From Candidatus Babeliales bacterium (GTDB lineage: Bacteria > Babelota > Babeliae > Babelales > JACPOV01), in assembly GCA_040879965.1 (NCBI GenBank), contig JBBDJI010000013.1, positions 298,365-362,364 on the forward strand: a stretch of DNA of 64,000 nucleotides, read 5' to 3'. This document shows, one piece after another, positions 3,975 through 54,800 of the stretch. The notes beneath the pieces were generated by a model, which was not told where the DNA came from, did not search any database, and saw only the letters and a list, made by a program, of their open reading frames with translations. A program made the position numbers and the translations under genes. Positions within the stretch are counted from its first letter, which is position 1; each line of letters starts with the position of its first letter.

Positions 3975-4010
3975 AACAATCCCGAGTATTTTTATTCGGG
4001 ATTGTTTTCT
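3975..4010 (+). terminator. Rho-independent terminator
   Basis: Stem aacaatcccga (3975-3985) pairs with tcgggattgtt (3996-4006), followed by a T-run. Confidence 0.6.
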
Positions 4011-4184
4011 AAATCTCAATAGTTATCCGCCATTTCCATTTTTAATTTTATAATTGATATAATAAAATATTTATTTTTAATTTTTCCTCATTAAATAAAT
4101 CCTGCAATTGACAAATATTTTCATAACTTTATCCTGTTAATATAAAAATATTTTTGAAAACCTCATATATAGTGGAGGACATTA

Positions 4185-6680
4185 ATGAGTAAATTTTCCA
4201 ATTGGATTAAAATAACTGCTTTTATCTTTTCTTTTTTTATTTTTTCAGAATTTTCTGCGAATCCTGTGCAGGAAAATCCCGCTGAGTTGGAACAAATTTT
4301 ATCAGAAATGAGTCCTGAAGATCAACAACAGTTGCAAGCTGAGCTTGAAAAATTTAGAGATCAATATTTAGAAGAAAAACGTGATGCCGGATTTAAACTT
4401 TTAGAAACATTCGAATTTCTTTGTGAACATCTTGGTCAAATGATTAACAACAATCAGATAAAAAACTTTGATCGCGAAAATGTATTAGCTCATATTAAAG
4501 AAACAAGAAAAACTATTCACGAACTCAAAAAAAATGCAAAAACCGCATTTGATCCTTACAGCATCAAAATCCTGTTCGATATCATTGAAAGTTACATAAA
4601 TCATCTGCGTACTTTAGTGAAAAATAGCTTAAAAACAGTCCCCGAACTTGATTTACAAGGTGTTATTAAACGAAGCATAGAAAGCGAAAAGTTTGACCCA
4701 GAAGAACTCGAAAAGCAAGTTTTACGCTGTCAAAAAAATATTGAATCACTTGAAAGAGAATCACAAAATGTAGGCCGTTCACTTTTTAATAGAGCGTACT
4801 GTCGTATTGAAAAATTCTGTTCAGATCATCATGTATTTTCTCGTACAGGAAAAGCTTTAATACTTGCACTTGGTGGCTATTGGGTTTTATCTCGTATTAA
4901 CAATGATACTTTTGAATCATTTGGTTTTAATAATGTTCCGGGATTAAATTCATTAAAAGAAAGTATCGGTGAAAATCCTAAATTACAGATCACTAAAATC
5001 GGTGAACATAAATCAATCGAAGTCATAAATCAACCGAATGTAACTACTGCAGGATGGATAGAACATTCTTTAGGAAGAGGTGGATTAAACCTTGTTGATT
5101 TAACATTACCGCCACTTATAACTTGGGCTACCTTGTGGGGACCTTTGCAAAACAATTGGGAAGCTATCAAACTGTGGACACAAAAAAAATGGTCCTATCT
5201 GAGAGGTGTTTTACGCGGTGGGCCCGTCGAAAATAAAACAGAATCATGGAAAAAAGACCCAAAACAAAAATTTGATGATGTTATTGGCCAACAAGCAGCT
5301 AAAGATGCTGTAGTAGCCATTAAAGATAGTGTTATCAATGAAGAAGCATGCCGTAGAGCAGGCATTAAACCAGCACAAGGTATCTTATTTTATGGCCCTC
5401 CTGGTACCGGTAAATCTATGCTTGCAGAAGCACTGGGCACTGAATTCAAAAATCATGTAGATAAGAACATTAACTTCCTTGCAATATGCCCCGCAGATTT
5501 AGAATATCTAAAAGCACTAACTGGTTCTCCAACTGGTATTGGTGCTTTATTTGGATTACTCATACCTGATGGCATTACCGTATTAGTACTTGATGAAATT
5601 GATATGATCGGTTTACAACGTGAACGTGATTCTAAAGAATTAAGTCAATTATTAACTGAAATGAGTGGTATTATGAGTGCTAATTCATCCAAACATATTA
5701 TTGTAATTGGTATCACCAATAGACCTGAAAACTTAGATGATGCATTATTGCGTTCCGGCCGTTTTGGTAAGGCAATCTGGTTTGATTACCCTTCATTGCA
5801 AGATCGTATTACTTACCTTACTCGTGAACTTGAAAATCGTTGCATCATAAATATTGATAGCGATTATATTGAGAAACTTGCAAAAGAAACTGAACGTTGC
5901 ACTTTTGAAGACCTTAACAAAATTCTTACGGGTGCCTTACTAAAAGCAAAAGCTCATAGAGAAGCGTTGAATGAAAATCATCTAGAAGAAGCATTTGATG
6001 AAGAAATTCGTCGCATTTTATTTGATGATTCTTCATTGCCTGAAGAACATAAAAAGATGCTCGCTGCTCATCAAGCCGGTCATGCATTAGCAGCCATGCT
6101 TTTAGATAAAATCAATAAAGTAACCAAAGTAACAATTCGCGCAGTCAGTAAAAAACTGCAAGAAGAATCTATATATGCAAAATATAGTGAAAATGGTAAG
6201 TCAAAAGAAAAAACACAAGCAAATGATCCAATAGAACTCGGTAAGGTTTTCACTGAAAAACCAGACAATGTACGTACGCTCTATACCCGCGATGAACTTA
6301 TAAATCAGATTAAGATTAATCTCGCTGGGCATATTGCAGAAAACATTCTTAGATCTAATGCTGGAAACTATCATAAAGAAGATAAAGAAAAAGCACTTGC
6401 TTATGCGCGACAAATTATTTTTGAAGGCATGGACCCAAATAGCTTGCCAAAAAACATAAAAAATAAGCGCAATCATGAAGCATTTGTCCTCATGAATAAG
6501 TGTGAAAAAGAAATAGAAACGCTTCTCTTGCAGTTCAAAACTGAATTGAAAGAAATTGCTGATACATTACAAGAAAAACTCACACTCAGTTATTCTGAAT
6601 TATTTGCGATTCTTAATAAGTCTCTTGAAAATAATGAAGAAAAGCTAAAAATTGAACCAGTAACAGCACCAGCAGCATAG
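4185..6680 (+). CDS. FtsH-like AAA+ protein with a long N-terminal coiled-coil/membrane region and a degenerate M41 protease domain (HQxxH)
   Basis: Walker A GPPGTGKSM, Walker B VLVLDEID, SRH region LLRSGRFGKAIWFDYPS. The M41-like C-terminal part aligns to FtsH (AAHQAGHALAAMLL, VTKVTIRAV, LAGHIAENIL), but the catalytic Glu of HEXXH is Gln. SD ggagga lies upstream of the ATG. Confidence 0.8.
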   Translation: MSKFSNWIKITAFIFSFFIFSEFSANPVQENPAELEQILSEMSPEDQQQLQAELEKFRDQYLEEKRDAGFKLLETFEFLCEHLGQMINNNQIKNFDRENVLAHIKETRKTIHELKKNAKTAFDPYSIKILFDIIESYINHLRTLVKNSLKTVPELDLQGVIKRSIESEKFDPEELEKQVLRCQKNIESLERESQNVGRSLFNRAYCRIEKFCSDHHVFSRTGKALILALGGYWVLSRINNDTFESFGFNNVPGLNSLKESIGENPKLQITKIGEHKSIEVINQPNVTTAGWIEHSLGRGGLNLVDLTLPPLITWATLWGPLQNNWEAIKLWTQKKWSYLRGVLRGGPVENKTESWKKDPKQKFDDVIGQQAAKDAVVAIKDSVINEEACRRAGIKPAQGILFYGPPGTGKSMLAEALGTEFKNHVDKNINFLAICPADLEYLKALTGSPTGIGALFGLLIPDGITVLVLDEIDMIGLQRERDSKELSQLLTEMSGIMSANSSKHIIVIGITNRPENLDDALLRSGRFGKAIWFDYPSLQDRITYLTRELENRCIINIDSDYIEKLAKETERCTFEDLNKILTGALLKAKAHREALNENHLEEAFDEEIRRILFDDSSLPEEHKKMLAAHQAGHALAAMLLDKINKVTKVTIRAVSKKLQEESIYAKYSENGKSKEKTQANDPIELGKVFTEKPDNVRTLYTRDELINQIKINLAGHIAENILRSNAGNYHKEDKEKALAYARQIIFEGMDPNSLPKNIKNKRNHEAFVLMNKCEKEIETLLLQFKTELKEIADTLQEKLTLSYSELFAILNKSLENNEEKLKIEPVTAPAA

Positions 6681-19606: not shown

Positions 19607-20635
19607 TTATGCAGGAAATCCACAATACGCCAAACGACGAGAACGCTCCCAGGCAGACAAAAATGAGTTAATATCATAAGATACCCGTGTTTTTTGGATA
19701 TCTTCAAAGGCAGGATCATGACAAATAACTTTTTTATTTTGGTTATCCCAACCAATCACAATAAGCAAATGTCCTTTATCATATTCTTTGGGTGCACCAA
19801 GCAATACACCACGAACGCTTACTACCACAGGAATTTTTTTTGCAAGCATACGATATAAATCAATAAAGGCAGATAAACGTTGCACGCAAAAATAAAAGGA
19901 ACCATTAGCACATTCAAAGGCATGTGCCGTATTAAATGGCCAACTGCCGTAGGCATTTAAACCATTATCATATGCTTTTTGCGCAAATTGTACCGGGTCT
20001 ATATTCTTTTTTATAAGATTACTTACGAGCATGCAACTTGAAGTTGGTGAGCACAATACTTCTTTTTTCGGATGGTCCAATACCATTTGTGAAATTGTAG
20101 GTACATTCTCAATAACTGCAGAAGGCATGTTTATTTTTTTATTAAATAACTCATTTTTAAAATTGAGTAAATTTGAAACACATACATGCAAACCACGGAT
20201 ATTAGATAAATTAGCATTATTTTGTGCTTTTACCATAATGCGTAATGCATCAGCTTTTTTTGATTTGGGCAATTCAAGCCTTACATGATGATAATTAGTG
20301 CTTTGTGTGCGTTCTTCTTTAAATGAACGCTGCTCTTCTTTCCCCCAATGCATCATAGTATGCCAATCGTACCACTTTTTTGTCACTACATCACGAACTT
20401 GAGCATGAAAAGAAAAATATCCATTCTGAGGCCTAAATGCATTCCAAGAAAAAATTAATTGAGTAAACTGAGGAGTGCTCAGTTTAGAAAAAAGAATTTT
20501 GGATTTTTCTTTATTTTGTAGCGCTTGTTCAGAAGTAAATCGTTTGGTGTAAGTCCATGTCCATGGTACTACTGAATCGGCAAGTACAATCGCTGAAAAA
20601 AATAAGATCGGTAGTACCATATAATATTGCTTCAT
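19607..20635 (-). CDS. Secreted papain-fold cysteine peptidase, C39-like (Peptidase_C39_2-type)
   Basis: LCSPTSSCMLVSNLI resembles the CGPTS catalytic-Cys motif. GHLLIVIGWD....VICHDPA resembles the His/Asp region. Start moved to ATG 20635, preceded by aggagag. Confidence 0.5.
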   Translation of the reverse strand: MKQYYMVLPILFFSAIVLADSVVPWTWTYTKRFTSEQALQNKEKSKILFSKLSTPQFTQLIFSWNAFRPQNGYFSFHAQVRDVVTKKWYDWHTMMHWGKEEQRSFKEERTQSTNYHHVRLELPKSKKADALRIMVKAQNNANLSNIRGLHVCVSNLLNFKNELFNKKINMPSAVIENVPTISQMVLDHPKKEVLCSPTSSCMLVSNLIKKNIDPVQFAQKAYDNGLNAYGSWPFNTAHAFECANGSFYFCVQRLSAFIDLYRMLAKKIPVVVSVRGVLLGAPKEYDKGHLLIVIGWDNQNKKVICHDPAFEDIQKTRVSYDINSFLSAWERSRRLAYCGFPA

Positions 20636-20800
20636 TACTAACTCTCCTGTCATTACCATACTGAAAAAAATACAACCAAATCAATAAAACTTGCAATTCT
20701 CACCAATTTACTACGATTCTATCTTATCCCTTGATATTATTTATTCAAATTGAAAATAATATATATGTAAAGTTTATTGTAAATCTTATTAGGAGTTGTC

Positions 20801-24709: not shown

Positions 24710-24805
24710 AAAACTTCAAAAAAACATCTATTGTCCTTATTTTGTGCAATTTGCTACAATAAAAGAGGTCAAATTAATTTAAAATCACCTCATAAAGTGA
24801 ATATT

Positions 24806-25795
24806 ATGTACCGATTATATTATCTTTTCACTCATATGTTAATGTTGTTGTTTCTTGCTATAAATTTAGACACATATTCATCCGAAAAATGTATGATCCT
24901 TGATAATATTAAATATTTCACCAAAAGAACCGTCATAATTAATGAAGATTCGCAATCACATCTTACCAAAAATTTACGCTATCTATTAGGCGAAATTGCA
25001 ATGTACAATATTGATCAATTTTTTCAATTTCAAATGGTACCAAAAACAATAATAATTAAGAGAAAAAATAACGAGAATCAAGAAATAATATGTGGTTCCC
25101 AATGGATAGAGCCAGAAGAAATAATTATCGGCAATGCAGAAAGTTTACAAAAGCTTATTACACAACAAGAATGGGCACAAATGAATATTATTTGCTTTCT
25201 TTTTGGCCAATATGATCGGCACTTTGGCAATTTAATAATCGAAAAAGATAGCAAAAAACTCTACTTAATTGATAATGAAGCCATAGCAAATGTAAAACAA
25301 TTTGTACTCGCTTATAGCTCGAATAAAGAATTAAGTTGTCCTTGGGTAGGTGGTGTGGGTGATTTTATAGCTAAAGAAACAATTTTCCCACATGAAGAAC
25401 CAACAGATTTTCTTTCAGTCATTGCGGTCAAACAAGGCCCCGAAAAAATTCATGCTTCCTTTCCTGATGTTGATACTTGGACCAAACTAGATATAGATAA
25501 CGGATATTGCCGCATATGGCGTAATCTTTTGTGGCGCCAATTTTATGCTTCGCAAGAAGGCATCGCCGCCCCATTTTCAGAAATTATAAGCTCCGCATTA
25601 TTTAAAAAATTAAAAGCGCTTACTGCAAAAGATTTGACTTCGTTTTGGCCAGAAATACCATTTACAATGACAAAAGAAGGCCAACAGGAATATCAAGATT
25701 TAATTGAGCAATTTATACAAAAAACATTAAACCGTAGAGATATGATCGTTGAATATTTTGAAAAACATTCAGAAAAAATCAGAGAATATAAATAA
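24806..25795 (+). CDS. Secreted PI3/PI4-kinase-like protein
   Basis: FLFGQYDRHFGNLII......LYLIDNEA matches the PI3/PI4-kinase catalytic loop (G.xDRHxxN) and the metal-binding IDxx segment. Start placed at ATG 24806, giving the hydrophobic leader MYRLYYLFTHMLMLLFLAINL. Confidence 0.5.
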   Translation: MYRLYYLFTHMLMLLFLAINLDTYSSEKCMILDNIKYFTKRTVIINEDSQSHLTKNLRYLLGEIAMYNIDQFFQFQMVPKTIIIKRKNNENQEIICGSQWIEPEEIIIGNAESLQKLITQQEWAQMNIICFLFGQYDRHFGNLIIEKDSKKLYLIDNEAIANVKQFVLAYSSNKELSCPWVGGVGDFIAKETIFPHEEPTDFLSVIAVKQGPEKIHASFPDVDTWTKLDIDNGYCRIWRNLLWRQFYASQEGIAAPFSEIISSALFKKLKALTAKDLTSFWPEIPFTMTKEGQQEYQDLIEQFIQKTLNRRDMIVEYFEKHSEKIREYK

Positions 25796-25825
25796 AAAAA
25801 GCCCTGCACTTAACGCAGGGCTTTC
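25796..25825. terminator. Bidirectional rho-independent terminator
   Basis: Stem gccctgc (25801-25807) pairs with gcagggc (25815-25821), with an A-run before and a T-run after. Lies between convergent genes. Confidence 0.65.
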
Positions 25826-25852: not shown

Positions 25853-26329
25853 TTAACCAACTTTTAATAATTCCACATCAAAAATAAGATCTGCATTTGG
25901 TCGAATAACCTGCCCTGCACCACGCGTGCCGTAAGCTAGCTCTGATGGAATAAATAAGCGACGTTTTTCACCAACTTTCATAGGCATAACTCCCTCATCC
26001 CATCCTTCAATTACTTGACAAACACCAAGAGTAAAGGTAAACGGTTGCCCGCGATCTACACTGCTATCAAATTTTTTGCCAGGCTCGCCTTGTTCATTCA
26101 ACCAACCAGTATAATGAACTGTCACTTGCTGCCCCTTTTTTGGCGAAGCACCAGTTCCTTCTTTAATAACTTCGTATTGCAAACCAGAATCAGTTTTTTT
26201 ATGTGTCATTTTTGAAATCCTTTTTGGTTCATCTATTTTGTTGTTTTTTCTTTTATTTTTTGATTCTATCAAACCTGCTACTAAAAAAACTGGCAAGACT
26301 ATTAAAGAACCAATCATTAATTTCTTCAT
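25853..26329 (-). CDS. FKBP-type peptidyl-prolyl cis-trans isomerase, secreted or membrane-anchored (Mip/FkpA-like short form)
   Basis: GLQYEVIKEGTG, VTVHYTGWL, FDSSVDRGQPFTF, VIEGWDEG, LAYGTRGAG, LIFDVELL. Signal-like N-terminus. Confidence 0.9.
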   Translation of the reverse strand: MKKLMIGSLIVLPVFLVAGLIESKNKRKNNKIDEPKRISKMTHKKTDSGLQYEVIKEGTGASPKKGQQVTVHYTGWLNEQGEPGKKFDSSVDRGQPFTFTLGVCQVIEGWDEGVMPMKVGEKRRLFIPSELAYGTRGAGQVIRPNADLIFDVELLKVG

Positions 26330-26406: not shown

Positions 26407-28128
26407 TCATGACAACTGGCATTGTCTTTTTATATAAAAAAGACAAAAATAATGCATTAATATATAATTTCGTAAAAAATTTGATTTTCTTTTCGCTAGC
26501 TTTAAGCAAAAATCGACTGCACCAAGTATCCCGAACGGAAGACAAACACCTATAAAACTATAAACGAAAAATTCTTTTGGTAAGAATGAAAACTGTTTTA
26601 TCCATCGAGATACAGAAGGGAATTTTTTGCGCCATAAATTTTGTGATTCATCATCTTCTATATGATAGCTATCATTTAATAATTTCTTCACTTCTGGATC
26701 AAGAAAATCAAAGGTTGCTTTTAACAACCCACATAAATTTTTATTCTGACTAAATATTATTATTGCTAATTTTTGCTGCCAATTTAAATCTTTCCATAAA
26801 TACAAAAGATTATTTAAAGAATATATTTTGATTTTACCATTAAAAAGCTTGAGCGCTTTTCTTCCAGAAGTATTCAAGTTTACTTTACTAATATTATTGT
26901 CATTTTTTCTAATACGAAATACATTAGACGAAGAAACTAAATTAGCTGAGTTTTTAAGATCATAAATTAAAATTGCATCTTCTTGTTCATATAAAAAAAA
27001 TTCTTCCTGCGAATTTATAACAGATGGTCCGATAGTGCTCAAATACTCTTTTTTAGATTCACCCGTAGCAAGGTTTTTGAAATTCCAACTCAATCCTCCT
27101 CTTGCGTTACAAGCAGCTAATAAACTACCATTATCACTAAAAATAGGGTGGTAATATTTTTTAAGTTCTTCATCTTTATAAAAGGAATCATCCAAATTGT
27201 TTCTTTCAAATCCTAGCAAACCAGCTTCGTAGTCATGAACAAAGATAAAATTACTATTTTTAGTAACTAAGCCCCAAGGTTTATCAAAAATTTTAAGAAT
27301 TTTATTGGCTTCTACATTAAAAATTTTCAGATAATGAAAATAATCTCTCATTTCCATTTCTTCATTACCTTTACTAAAAGAAACTACACATAATTTACCA
27401 TCGTTACTTAAAGAGACCTCGTCTAAATCGGTTCTATAATATATTGTACTTTCTTGATTTCCGTTTTCTTTATTAACTTTGGTAACTTGATTGGTTTGAT
27501 TATCAAGTATATATTGGTAATATTTTCCATCAATATTTTCTATATTATCAGGAAAAAGAGTTATATTCTTAATGAAATTGCCTGTATTAATATCCCAAAT
27601 TGCAAGAACATTACCAGCGGCGGGTACACAAATAAAGTTATCATTAACCACTACCCGGTATATCCCTCGCGTCGGCAAAGTAAATAAAGCTTTCCCAGAT
27701 TTAATATCAAACATAGAACCAATACCATTTTTTACAACAAATGCATGCTTTCCATTATTGCATAGGTGAGCATCGGTAGTTTTTGTTCCAAAGCGCTTAA
27801 ACATCCCATATATAGATACAATCCAAGGAAACTTCAAGTTGGGTTCAAATTCTGTAATCGTTTTATATTCAAAACTTTCAATTGCTTTTCTATAGGCGTG
27901 ATTAAAATTAATATTTGTATCAATTTTTTGAGCAGTATCAGCATTAATACTTAAATTACCTGAAAATAATCTATTGTAATTTTCTGGGCTCTTACCATAA
28001 TTTATAATTGACTTAATACACAAATCACCTAATGAATTAACAGTTTTATTGTCGATAATCTCCATGGAAAAAAGAGAAATCGGAAAAAAAAGAACAACCA
28101 AAAATAAATACCATTTTCTAAATTTCAT
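26407..28128 (-). CDS. Hypothetical signal-peptide protein with beta-propeller-like repeats and C-terminal TM segment
   Basis: 573-aa ORF with blade-like repeats (HAFVVKNGIGSMFDI, VLAIWDINTG, LCVVSFSKG, LKIFNVEA, LLAACNARGG). C-terminal hydrophobic FFVYSFIGVCLPFGILGAV. Overall layout resembles ORF 14569..16263. Confidence 0.45.
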   Translation of the reverse strand: MKFRKWYLFLVVLFFPISLFSMEIIDNKTVNSLGDLCIKSIINYGKSPENYNRLFSGNLSINADTAQKIDTNINFNHAYRKAIESFEYKTITEFEPNLKFPWIVSIYGMFKRFGTKTTDAHLCNNGKHAFVVKNGIGSMFDIKSGKALFTLPTRGIYRVVVNDNFICVPAAGNVLAIWDINTGNFIKNITLFPDNIENIDGKYYQYILDNQTNQVTKVNKENGNQESTIYYRTDLDEVSLSNDGKLCVVSFSKGNEEMEMRDYFHYLKIFNVEANKILKIFDKPWGLVTKNSNFIFVHDYEAGLLGFERNNLDDSFYKDEELKKYYHPIFSDNGSLLAACNARGGLSWNFKNLATGESKKEYLSTIGPSVINSQEEFFLYEQEDAILIYDLKNSANLVSSSNVFRIRKNDNNISKVNLNTSGRKALKLFNGKIKIYSLNNLLYLWKDLNWQQKLAIIIFSQNKNLCGLLKATFDFLDPEVKKLLNDSYHIEDDESQNLWRKKFPSVSRWIKQFSFLPKEFFVYSFIGVCLPFGILGAVDFCLKLAKRKSNFLRNYILMHYFCLFYIKRQCQLS

Positions 28129-48189: not shown

Positions 48190-49671
48190 ATGAACTGGAT
48201 TCTTTGTTTATTTCTTACGTTGTTCATTAATAATTTTCATATAACCAATAGCAATCAGCATGAAACACCTTCAAAGCAAAGTAATTTTACTCTTTCCTAT
48301 GAAATATGTATGAATCAATTAAACACATTGGAATATACACTTCTTGAAATACTCACTGCATTACATGATCATTTAGAATACTGGGAACAATTACAATTGC
48401 GTCCAATTCGGCGTTTTATCAGTAACGGCCCTTTAAAATGGTTTAAATCTCAATCGCAAACGATAGAAATTAAAGACCACGTCAAAGTTTTACAACAAGA
48501 AATTGAAAATATTAGCCGGTATATTGGCTATTTGCATGAAATTAAACAACAAAAAAAATCTGCTTCCGCTAATTTTGCCCATCAAGAACTTTATCGGTTA
48601 GCGCATATTATCAATAAATGTCTGGATTATTCTGATCCAAATACGCAACCGATTATAAAAGAAAATCTTGAACAAGAACTCAATATACTATTGATGAAAA
48701 ATAAAAAAAAATTAGCTCATTTTAAAAATACTATGAACGGTCGCATTGCAATACATAAAAAACCCTCTCATTTTTCTCGGCATTGGCTCGAATATTCTAT
48801 TGGAGCGCTTTCCGCACTTAGTTCTTTGGCTTACTGGTATAAAAATCATGATAAAGTAAATAAATGGGTACATGACACCCATACTTCTGGCAAAAATTTT
48901 TATCATAATTATGCATATCAACCAATACAAAATATAATCGATATTTTTTATGGTAAATATGAAACTAAAGAACTAATTACTACCGAAGAAATAAAAAATT
49001 TAGAAGAAATGAAAAGAGAAGGAATTATTAATTTTTATAAAAAGCATACTAATCTTGCTGAACAAGAAATTAAAAAAATTGCAGAAGAAGCAATTCAACA
49101 AAAAACTTTACCAGAATTGATTAGAAAAAAATGGTTAGAGACCTCACCAAATGCATTGTGGAATGTATTAATTGGAAGCACAAGATTACCATATATCGGT
49201 AATAAAGATGCCATTTGGCTCGCTCTTTTGAAAATAGATGATGGTATTATCACTGGAAAATCTGCTTTATTACTTGGGCAAGATATACTTAAAGCAAATT
49301 CGCTCAATCAACAAATTCTAGTTGCTATACCTGCCGTACTCACGATACTCGGTGGATGCTATACGATAAAAAAAGCTTATAATTTATTTAAAAAAAATCC
49401 ATTTGATTACATACAAAAAGAATTGATATCAATTGAAAGTATTTTAAATAAGTATAACAACTCGTCAATGTCTATAGATTATACTGCATTAGGTCTTATT
49501 CATTATCATGAATATAAAATCTTAAATAATATCGATTGCATTCCAGTTGGTGATCAAGCACGATTTATTCGTGATCTATCAGAACTCGATTCACTTGAGT
49601 TTTCAATCCCACAAAAAATTGCAACTATTAATCGCATGTATCGCGCCTATCCATTTTTAGTAAAAAAATAA
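48190..49671 (+). CDS. Hypothetical membrane protein
   Basis: 493-aa ORF with signal-like N-terminus and internal hydrophobic segments (SIGALSALSSLAYW, ILVAIPAVLTILGG). No family recognised. Confidence 0.5.
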   Translation: MNWILCLFLTLFINNFHITNSNQHETPSKQSNFTLSYEICMNQLNTLEYTLLEILTALHDHLEYWEQLQLRPIRRFISNGPLKWFKSQSQTIEIKDHVKVLQQEIENISRYIGYLHEIKQQKKSASANFAHQELYRLAHIINKCLDYSDPNTQPIIKENLEQELNILLMKNKKKLAHFKNTMNGRIAIHKKPSHFSRHWLEYSIGALSALSSLAYWYKNHDKVNKWVHDTHTSGKNFYHNYAYQPIQNIIDIFYGKYETKELITTEEIKNLEEMKREGIINFYKKHTNLAEQEIKKIAEEAIQQKTLPELIRKKWLETSPNALWNVLIGSTRLPYIGNKDAIWLALLKIDDGIITGKSALLLGQDILKANSLNQQILVAIPAVLTILGGCYTIKKAYNLFKKNPFDYIQKELISIESILNKYNNSSMSIDYTALGLIHYHEYKILNNIDCIPVGDQARFIRDLSELDSLEFSIPQKIATINRMYRAYPFLVKK

Positions 49672-53114: not shown

Positions 53115-54800
53115 GTGAAAAAAATAATTTTTTTAATTTTTCTTAATATTGTTGCAACTACTTATGCTTCAGAGGATATTCCAGCCGAGTTTCAAAATTA
53201 TCATACCAAAAAATGGCCTCAATTTTTAGTTAATTTTTACAATGCAATTCAAGAAACATTATATGATGTTAAAGAAAATATAACGAGCATTCCGCAAGCC
53301 GTATATTTTAAATTTATCGGCAAACATCCGCATGCTGAAGAACAAGCTATAGTACGATTTTCTGAAAATGATGATATTTCTGATATAGAGAAGGAATTCA
53401 TTAAGCAACGTTTAAAATTTGTGAAAGAAAATTTAGAAAAAGAATTTAATATTTCTTTAGATGAAAATAAAATACCACGAATTGGCCTAATTTTTAGTGG
53501 TGGTGGTTTTCGCGCTATGATTACCACACTTGGCTTTTTATGTGGCGCGCAAACGATAGGACTTCTTGATAATACTTTATACTGTACTGGCCTTTCTGGT
53601 TCAACATGGGCTCTTGCTCCTTGGATTGCTTCTAAAAAACCACTTCTACAATTTACCAAAGAACTTACCAACAAATTATCCTATGGTATAGATCATATAG
53701 ATACCCCTTATGAACTGAGTGAATTATTAGAAATTTTTGTTACAAAATTACTATGTGGTCAATTTATATCTACTATGGATATTTATGGCAACGTTATTGT
53801 AAATACCTTACTCAGAGATTTGATTGATAAGCCTATGCTTATACGCATGACAGAATCTCACGCACATATTTTAAATGGTTCTGCACCGTTACCAATTTAT
53901 ACCGCGATACAAACACATCGCGATCCATATGAATGGATGGAGTTTACGCCATTTGAAGTGGGAAGTTCATATTTAAAATCATATGTGCCAACATGGGCCT
54001 ATGGCAGAAGCTTCTCCGGTGGTTCCTCACATGATTATGCACCAGAACAAACATTAGGTTATTTTTTGGGTATTTTTGGTTCAGCTTTTGAAGTAAACTT
54101 GAAGGATATTGTTCGCATGAGTGCTACTAATCTTTCTTATTATGGTCATCAATTACCAGGAATACTTGCCGGTGCTTTAAAAAAATGCCTTCGTCTTATT
54201 TTAGATTCTTTTTTAGGTGAAATGAGATTATTTCCTTCAATGCTTTCTAATTTTACTTATCTATGCGAGCAAAGCCCTATTTGTGATGAAAAAACAATTC
54301 CACTGGTTGATGCCGGTATTGATTTTAATTTACCTTTTCCGCCATTACTCAGACCGGCACGCAATATGGACATTCTAATTGTGTATGATGCTTCAGCAGA
54401 TATTGAAAATGCACCGGAATTAAGACGAGCAGAACGATATGCGCAGAGAAATGGCCTTAAATTTCCACCTATTAATTATGAAATAGTTGATAAGCAACCA
54501 GTAAGTATTTTTAAAGATACTGAAGATCCGCAGGTACCAATGGTTATTTATTTTCCACGCATAAAAAATATAAATTATTCAATGGAATTTGACCCTGAAT
54601 ATTGCATTGAAGGGGATTATTGCAATACATTCAACTTTAGTTATAAACCAGAAGAAGCAAAATTATTATGTGGCTTTGCAGAATTTGCATTGCATGAACA
54701 ACAAGAACTCATAAAACAATCAATTCAAGATGTGCTTGTGGAAAAATATGGTTATGCAATGACTACGCCCTCAACAGAAGCAATGGAGATTGTAGCATAG
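53115..54800 (+). CDS. Eukaryote-type cytosolic phospholipase A2 / lysophospholipase (PLA2_B, group IV-like) with signal peptide
   Basis: SGGGFRAM (oxyanion/Arg), GLSGSTW (nucleophile Ser), LVDAGIDFNLPFPPLLRPARNMDILIVYDASA (Asp region, close to cPLA2-alpha VDSGLTFNLPYPLILRPQRGVDLIISFDFSA from memory). GTG start after aaggaggggg. Confidence 0.85.
   Translation: MKKIIFLIFLNIVATTYASEDIPAEFQNYHTKKWPQFLVNFYNAIQETLYDVKENITSIPQAVYFKFIGKHPHAEEQAIVRFSENDDISDIEKEFIKQRLKFVKENLEKEFNISLDENKIPRIGLIFSGGGFRAMITTLGFLCGAQTIGLLDNTLYCTGLSGSTWALAPWIASKKPLLQFTKELTNKLSYGIDHIDTPYELSELLEIFVTKLLCGQFISTMDIYGNVIVNTLLRDLIDKPMLIRMTESHAHILNGSAPLPIYTAIQTHRDPYEWMEFTPFEVGSSYLKSYVPTWAYGRSFSGGSSHDYAPEQTLGYFLGIFGSAFEVNLKDIVRMSATNLSYYGHQLPGILAGALKKCLRLILDSFLGEMRLFPSMLSNFTYLCEQSPICDEKTIPLVDAGIDFNLPFPPLLRPARNMDILIVYDASADIENAPELRRAERYAQRNGLKFPPINYEIVDKQPVSIFKDTEDPQVPMVIYFPRIKNINYSMEFDPEYCIEGDYCNTFNFSYKPEEAKLLCGFAEFALHEQQELIKQSIQDVLVEKYGYAMTTPSTEAMEIVA

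Follow-up and report, generated by a model that had tools for sequence, protein, structure and literature searches.

A probable Sec-exported atypical kinase of a Babeliales bacterium, from an uncurated family related to FAM20 and type II PI4K

The DNA analysed here (the window, 64,000 nt in all) comes from a Candidatus Babeliales bacterium, and the gene in question is an open reading frame (ORF) at 24806..25795 on its forward strand. The 329-aa product, which begins MYRLYYLFTHMLMLLFLAINLD, is 100 % identical to a protein (P0001) of a Candidatus Babeliales (Dependentiae/TM6) metagenome-assembled genome (MAG). A preliminary description made from the letters alone had read this product as a secreted PI3/PI4-kinase-like protein, possibly acting on host phosphoinositides, with a divergent paralog at 13165..14202. 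It was found that the gene probably encodes a Sec-exported atypical kinase, belonging to a Dependentiae-specific subfamily with a reduced N-lobe within an uncurated family related to FAM20 and to the type II phosphatidylinositol (PI) 4-kinases (PI4Ks).

Catalytic motif, predicted fold and leader

The catalytic and metal-binding segment is present at the spacing described beforehand. Residues 131-160 (nt 25196-25285) read FLFGQYDRHFGNLIIEKDSKKLYLIDNEAI, giving the pattern GQYDRHFGN-(12)-IDNE, and the metal-binding D156 lies 19 residues past D137 in an IDN rather than a DFG motif. In an alignment of 18 subfamily sequences (alignment A1), K40, E63, D137, I155 and D156 are invariant, R138 and N157 are nearly so, and the Asp...Asn form DRH..N is retained, with N142, in 14 of the 18 homologues. 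The Pfam model PI3_PI4_kinase (PF00454) aligned to residues 122-160 over model positions 133-171 (E 0.0018), and the same model matched nine of the 18 subfamily members at E<=0.1 (best 5.4e-6). Among six-frame segments of 100 aa or more, D[RPK]HxxN occurs just twice in the window, in the present ORF and in that at 13165..14202. The two occurrences only, the PF00454 alignment and the invariance of D137 and D156 together indicate that the motif is no chance pattern. Homologues fell into 21 clusters, every named one of them from a Babeliales/Dependentiae MAG.

An AlphaFold2 model was built with the 18-sequence alignment and reached a predicted local distance difference test score (pLDDT) of 87.1, with values of ~88-98 from residue 200 on, and a predicted template modelling score of 0.84. 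The elements run in the order strand 37-45, helix 55-73, strands 81-87 and 92-99, helices 111-133, the loop GQYDRHFGN, strands 143-146 and 152-154 and then IDN, and the order in this model is that of a protein-kinase-like fold. Comparison of the model with the PDB by Foldseek, for which the best 50 matches were listed, returned essentially all kinases. The first 11 were type II PI4K alpha and beta (E 1.4e-3 to 1.4e-2, probability 0.87-1.0), followed by FAM20A, CtkA, OspG, HipA and PI4KIIIbeta. The top match in BFVD was a phage 'PI3K/PI4K catalytic domain-containing protein' (E 2.4e-4, probability 1.0, 310 columns). By sequence alone, phmmer found no match for the 329-aa protein among PDB sequences, and for the relative P0020 it gave GroEL noise alone (E ~0.3). 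The preliminary description had staked its assignment on a kinase-fold match to such a model and on conservation of the motif residues; both were found, and a kinase fold with a PI3K/PI4K-type catalytic and metal-binding segment is upheld by the sub-threshold PF00454 match, the Foldseek matches with type II PI4K first and the conserved residues.

The N-terminus of the protein (MYRLYYLFTHMLMLLFLAI...) consists of a single Arg and then a 16-residue hydrophobic run, a leader of the Sec signal-peptide or signal-anchor type. Leaders were called by a hydropathy heuristic alone, by which comparable ones occur in 16-17 of the 18 subfamily members; the hydrophobic leader noticed at the outset is real and family-wide. 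In these members, and likewise in most of the wider family, a hydrophobic stretch of at least 11 residues comes after a short, charged N-terminus, and some homologues have a canonical AxA cleavage site, as in P0020, where it falls between VQA and SQ. Hydropathy revealed no further transmembrane-like segments in the subfamily or in sampled wider-family members. A lipoprotein was rejected, there being no lipobox cysteine behind the hydrophobic run. The mature protein is acidic, with an isoelectric point of ~5.6 (subfamily range 4.9-9.4). In Chromulinavorax destructans, a cultured member of the Dependentiae, signal peptides are reported on 44 % of coding sequences, and Sec export, possibly with outer-membrane vesicles, has been proposed for its putative effectors (PMC6561590). 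Of the earlier term 'secreted', the Sec-type leader stands and delivery into the host is not supported.

Table 1. Features of the kinase gene, its surroundings and the second kinase-like ORF (positions in the window)
Feature	Positions	Strand	Basis
Promoter-like site TTGTCC-18 nt-TG-TACAAT	24731..24760	+	Consensus scan, 9/12 matches, extended -10 TG
Atypical kinase coding sequence (probable), 329 aa	24806..25795	+	ORF list; stop codon 25793-25795
Hydrophobic leader, Sec-type signal peptide or signal anchor, ~residues 1-25	24806..24880	+	Hydropathy
K40 on model strand 37-45, candidate ATP-phosphate-binding Lys	24923..24925	+	Invariant 18/18
alphaC-type helix, residues 55-73, with invariant E63, then 'VP' strand motif	24968..25024	+	AlphaFold2 model
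Catalytic loop GQYD137RHFGN142 and metal-binding I155-D156-N157	25196..25285	+	Pfam PF00454, alignment
C-lobe and C-terminal helical region (QxVxYS, SCPWV, LWRQFY, TLxRRDMIxxYF)	25286..25792	+	Conserved with wider family
Terminator-like 13-bp GC-rich hairpin, common to kinase gene and convergent FKBP gene	25797..25825		Terminator scan
Convergent FKBP gene	25853..26329	-	FKBP_C match
Separate kinase-like ORF with leader, 345 aa	13165..14202	+	Invariant K140, D272-x-H274-x-x-N277, D291, E293

A wider family of leader-bearing proteins

The subfamily profile was compared with 1.84 billion representative proteins and matched 361 at E<=1e-3, of which 83 passed E<=1e-10, counted as 50%-identity representatives. 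Members of this wider family are mostly ~340 aa with an N-terminal hydrophobic leader and have the motifs KAVFKP, AEVAAYxAS..LG..VPPTV, FGQWDxxxxN and LIDN. An alignment of 31 wider-family relatives (A4) was aligned by hhalign to the subfamily over residues 19-326 (probability 100%, E 3.9e-51), and its hidden Markov model (HMM) scored the window protein at 141.8 bits. Identity between the window subfamily and the wider family is 20-25%, and the C-terminal motifs LW.QF and RRDQ/M are common to both. Besides a Lys-bearing hairpin described below, part of the N-terminal region is missing from the subfamily. On these sequence comparisons, the Dependentiae subfamily can be regarded securely as a reduced offshoot of a larger, uncurated, mostly leader-bearing family. 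Recent eukaryote-to-bacterium transfer of a PI4K2 gene was considered and rejected, the bacterial relatives being far closer (E 4e-51) than any eukaryotic kinase and the GC content of the gene region matching that of the window.

Essentially no Pfam or NCBIfam model covers the wider family. PF00454 matched one of the 31 A4 members, and the Pfam Fam20C model matched three of 54 sampled relatives. TIGR03843 ('SCO1664 family protein'), a more distant relation, matched 43 of the 54 below threshold (E<=0.01, best E 1.4e-24), with at most 27 bits on individually scanned relatives against a cutoff of 172.4, and gave no match to the window protein at E<=10. Look-ups named few members, among them one from a Babeliales MAG (P0147) and one from a Bdellovibrionaceae MAG (P0282). 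Structural and profile relatives were also found among phage proteins, some of them fused to Mu-F, portal or ADP-ribosyltransferase modules.

Against PDB sequences, the subfamily profile matched only FAM20A and FAM20C, both at E ~0.01, the alignments covering the alphaC stretch and that of the catalytic loop. The A4 profile likewise matched FAM20 members only (FAM20A 4.6e-5, FAM20C 1.5e-3, FAM20B 0.039, Caenorhabditis elegans Fam20 0.062). A more mixed profile (A3) matched FAM20A/C/B at 1.6e-9 to 7e-8, PI4K2B at 4.5e-5, PI3Kalpha at 5e-3 and PI4K2A at 0.013. Because of these profile matches, the protein is placed in the sequence neighbourhood of FAM20, type II PI4K, HipA and CtkA.

Activity, substrate and alternative explanations

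The interpretation we favour, with moderate confidence, is that of a single-domain atypical kinase of the PI3K/PI4K-FAM20-HipA class bearing a Sec-type leader, an accessory protein of effector type in an obligately intracellular Babeliales bacterium. Because it is made with such a leader, the kinase would act outside the bacterial cytoplasm. After export, the mature protein of ~300 aa would hold Mg-ATP between its C-lobe and a reduced N-lobe composed of the K40 strand, the E63 alphaC helix and two more strands. D137 of GQYDRHFGN would serve as the catalytic base, N142 and D156 (IDN) would hold the metal ions, and the gamma-phosphate would pass to a substrate hydroxyl in a host compartment with host ATP at hand. 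Dependentiae are reported to rely on host ATP (PMC6561590).

Several observations weigh against this interpretation. No curated family threshold is passed, in that the PF00454 score of 18.7 bits is under the 27.1-bit gathering threshold and an NCBIfam search with the 329-aa protein gave no match. The Foldseek E-values against the PDB are ~1e-3 at best, with low TM-scores of 0.25-0.35. The hairpin 'VylvtL-nG-lkAVFKp', which bears the invariant Lys of the wider family, falls in a 13-17-residue gap of the subfamily in two independent alignments (hhalign and MAFFT L-INS-i), and canonical ATP binding is uncertain because this Lys-bearing hairpin is deleted. K40 of the subfamily lies on the remaining first strand, 23 residues ahead of E63, and may substitute for the lost lysine. 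Four of the 18 members (P0009, P0011, P0012 and P0013) have DRNLGG at the catalytic loop and so lose the His and the Mg-binding Asn. No basic lipid-binding loop is evident in the acidic mature protein, no translocation route past Sec is known, and the leaders are predictions from hydropathy.

For the substrate, a host phosphoinositide or other lipid head-group is a reasonable candidate, short of a probable one, and the same may be said of the remaining outcomes taken together, namely another substrate, the bacterium's own envelope or a non-catalytic protein. A protein or glycan, as for FAM20, is suggested more tentatively. The choice of host phosphoinositides in the preliminary description did not find support; FAM20 protein/xylose kinases, HipA and CtkA all match and carry the same catalytic signature, and protein or glycan substrates fit as well as a lipid does.

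The structural comparison bears first on the possibility, itself tentative, that the protein is a host-directed PI 3- or 4-kinase rewriting PI identity on host membranes. Type II PI4Ks (PI4K2A/PI4K2B; PDB 4PLA, 4WTV and 4HNE) are the best structural match (Foldseek E 1.4e-3, probability up to 1.0) and occupy all of the top 11 PDB positions, and PF00454 is the sole kinase family that recurrently matches the subfamily. They share with the window protein a helix-G-x-x-D-R-x-x-x-N loop followed by I-D-N, as well as an alphaC Glu ahead of a 'VP' strand, and their own motifs, which we take to be DRGNDN and IDNG, are similar to DRxxxN and IDN here. However, identity is 14-20% with a TM-score of ~0.27, and the window protein is half the size, has a reduced N-lobe, bears a Sec leader and is acidic when mature. 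Type II PI4Ks are anchored to membranes by a cysteine-rich palmitoylation insert, CCPCC; in the 329-aa sequence there are no adjacent cysteines and no such insert, which together with the isoelectric point of the mature protein argues against a PI kinase, as does the failure to reach the Pfam threshold. Moreover, the nearest solved relatives by sequence profile are FAM20 protein/xylose kinases, the TM-scores of FAM20A and CtkA equal or exceed that of PI4K2, and relatives occur in a Bdellovibrionaceae MAG and among phage proteins, the targets of those organisms being mostly without PI.

A precedent for PI-kinase effectors exists in other intracellular bacteria. The effectors LepB, LegA5/AnkK, OpiA, MavQ and Risk1 of Legionella, Francisella and Rickettsia rewrite PI identity on host membranes and follow the same logic of a PI3/4K-like core in a bacterium inside a eukaryote. 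Unlike the window protein, they have no Sec leader, are secreted by type IV or type VI systems and in most cases are larger proteins of several domains, and none of them is among the 50 Foldseek PDB matches listed. In a survey of the Legionella kinome (PMC9758233), the FAM20/CotH-like families neighbour LepB and AnkK, both PI kinases, and the substrates are inferred to be lipids, which also favours a PI kinase here.

Equally tentative is an exported FAM20-like kinase that would use host ATP to phosphorylate proteins or glycans outside the cytoplasm, whether in the host, the vacuole or the periplasm. FAM20A/B/C (PF06702; PDB 5WRR, 5YH3, 5XOM and 4KQA) come nearest by sequence profile among relatives with solved structures, being the only PDB sequence matches of both the subfamily and the A4 profile, and this explanation further draws on the three Fam20C matches among the sampled relatives. 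The family segment 'AEvAaY..d.fL....VPP' matches FAM20A 'AEIAAFHLDRILDFRRVPP', where subfamily 'laEvAmynadrflelnlvP' aligns too; 'F.FGQ.DRH' matches FAM20 'FLIGNMDRHH', and the catalytic loop aligns to 'GNMDRHHYE'. The metal-binding motif (L/I)DN of FAM20 is like that of the window protein, and secretion leaders occur on both FAM20 kinases and the Dependentiae family. The likeness is nevertheless at superfamily level, and PF06702 gave no match to the window protein at E<=10. FAM20 has DRHHYE without Asn, whereas the Asn is kept in DRHFGN, and FAM20 has large insertions and conserved disulfides, whereas no conserved disulfide cysteines were found in the 18-sequence alignment. FAM20 is moreover a Golgi family described as an animal one (PMC7948968).

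The structural match extends to CtkA, a secreted Helicobacter pylori kinase, which again agrees with FAM20-like action. HipA and CtkA have the G-x-x-D-x-H-x-x-N loop type in common with the window protein and are weak Foldseek matches (CtkA TM-score 0.32-0.35, probabilities 0.2-0.4), and one relative had weak matches to the Pfam models HipA_C and HipA_2. No HipB/HipS partner gene adjoins the kinase gene in the window or in two other genomes, and the HipA N-terminal domain is absent.

A broader proposal, which we regard as speculative and rather unlikely, is that the 361 wider-family representatives and the window protein form an undescribed clade of Sec-exported kinases, a prokaryotic counterpart of FAM20/type II PI4K exported by intracellular and possibly predatory bacteria, of which the Dependentiae subfamily would be an unusually minimal form that has lost the nucleotide-clamping hairpin but is kept active by the relocated K40.

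It is improbable that the protein is a pseudokinase or a repurposed fold, its nucleotide-binding hairpin lost and its role one of binding or scaffolding, or of AMPylation- or glutamylation-type chemistry. Deletion of the KAVFKP hairpin relative to the wider family, DRNLGG in four of the 18 members and the rank of the pseudokinase FAM20A as best PDB sequence match all point that way. Nevertheless, K40, E63, D137 and D156 are invariant, and thus kept even by the DRNLGG members, and N142 is retained in 14 of the 18 including the window protein; this retention indicates selection for metal and ATP chemistry. P0015, a close relative of the DRNLGG members, has DRHLGN. Because DRNLGG replaces DRH[FL]GN, part of the clade may, on these sequences, be drifting to a pseudokinase, the window protein itself having the canonical DRHFGN.

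Least probable is a kinase with a housekeeping role in the periplasm or envelope, which would modify surface components of the bacterium itself with host ATP that reaches the periplasm of an ATP-importing parasite. In its favour, a Sec leader alone takes a protein to the periplasm only, Dependentiae depend on host ATP and substrate-side motifs are common to the wider family. Against it, the gene occurs sporadically (21 clusters and one locus among GTDB representatives), there is no synteny with envelope genes and the core kinase-like ORF at 13165..14202 differs in being syntenic and phylum-wide.

Members of the Dependentiae are common parasites of protists, for the most part uncultured, and essentially nothing is known of how they manipulate their hosts. 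No paper on Dependentiae kinases or on the wider family was found in the literature, and kinases go unmentioned in the principal genome paper on a cultured representative (PMC6561590). An atypical kinase with a leader would offer a concrete, testable candidate effector. The wider family would add a large bacterial branch beside FAM20 and type II PI4K, whose prokaryotic relatives are poorly charted, and the reduced N-lobe, if active, would help to set the minimal requirements of the kinase fold. Interest would be limited if the protein were inactive or confined to the periplasm.

Genomic setting and other features of the window

The longest frame for the kinase gene spans 24731..25795 (+), with the ATG at 24806 internal to it. 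The NCBI annotation of the same MAG starts at M30 and gives 300 aa, hence a product without the leader. The ATG at 24806 is favoured over both M30 and the TTG at the 5' end of the frame, because a promoter-like site precedes it (which prefers it over the upstream TTG), the homologues have leaders and a start at M30 would delete the leader. Promoter-like sites number 24 in the AT-rich window against 12.4 expected, and the site is thus weak evidence.

The gene appears to be transcribed alone. Its neighbours in the window are a MauE-like membrane protein gene upstream and the FKBP gene downstream, and an operon with the former is unlikely, since the 96-nt gap between them holds the promoter-like site and this neighbour is not kept in two other genomes. 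There, the homologues lie beside SET, MsrAB and flavodoxin-like genes in one case and beside genes for RING-finger proteins and alanyl-tRNA synthetase in the other, and no synteny of the kinase gene is conserved across the window and these two genomes. A pattern scan of 185,579 GTDB species representatives gave one confirmed locus, in a Babeliales MAG. Such a sporadic distribution without synteny fits an accessory gene of effector type. The GC content of the window is 26-37%, and that of the kinase gene region is the same as the window's.

The ORF at 13165..14202, which had been proposed as a divergent paralog, has the segment DPHINN-(13)-IDTE and thus shares the catalytic-loop pattern. Paralogy at the family level did not hold. 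BLASTP aligned 57 residues of the two proteins (E 0.004), hhalign of A1 against the family of this ORF (A2) gave a probability of 64% over 37 catalytic-loop columns, A2 against A4 gave 4%, and at a limit as loose as E<=10 neither family's HMM picked up the ORF of the other. A close paralogous relationship was accordingly rejected, the likeness being confined to the catalytic loop. The mature protein is strongly basic (isoelectric point ~9-10, against ~5.6 for the kinase at 24806..25795), and its homologues form more than 600 clusters against 21. Its AlphaFold2 model (pLDDT 91.3) gave only weak Foldseek matches (E ~1e-2), to MEK1, PknI and other ordinary protein kinases, and no Pfam, NCBIfam or PDB sequence match was found. 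An upstream block of FtsX/MacB, PGK and a 180-aa ORF (-) is conserved between the window and two other genomes (L005 and L006, in which the counterparts of the 345-aa ORF lie at 4001-5086 and 4001-5128), and dnaA lies downstream in the window and in L006. Given the number of clusters, the synteny and the absence of database matches, this ORF seems to be an unannotated core Dependentiae protein. It is a phylum-wide kinase-like protein, kin to the kinase at 24806..25795 at superfamily level only.

Other observations concern the remainder of the window. Between FtsX and PGK lies a YhcG/DUF1016 PDDEXK nuclease gene at 9332..10447 (+), which is probably an insertion because it is absent from the otherwise syntenic blocks of L005 and L006. 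The dnaA gene (16846..18228, -) stands beside an Amidase_3 gene, and the cumulative GC skew falls monotonically over all 64 kb with no inflection near it. Two ORFs of ~570 aa, at 14569..16263 (+) and 26407..28128 (-), have N-terminal hydrophobic leaders; the former has weak WD40/beta-propeller Pfam matches, and the two have no detectable mutual similarity (BLASTP E 0.036).

A cluster of domains of host-interaction or eukaryote-like type was found in four further ORFs, at 28214..28915 (+), 28937..29416 (-), 29569..30477 (-) and 19607..20659 (-), and comprises ankyrin repeats, a PEMT/ICMT-like methyltransferase, a SIR2-like protein and a Peptidase_C39_2 protein. The ORF at 53115..54800 (+) has a PLA2_B (cytosolic phospholipase A2/lysophospholipase) catalytic domain (E 1.2e-24), a lipase of eukaryote type. 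At 48190..49671 (+) there is a Pfam match to NCA2 (E 1.7e-15), a family that takes its name from a eukaryotic protein involved in regulation of the mitochondrial ATP synthase, and this match deserves note because a cultured member of the Dependentiae remodels the host mitochondrion (PMC6561590).

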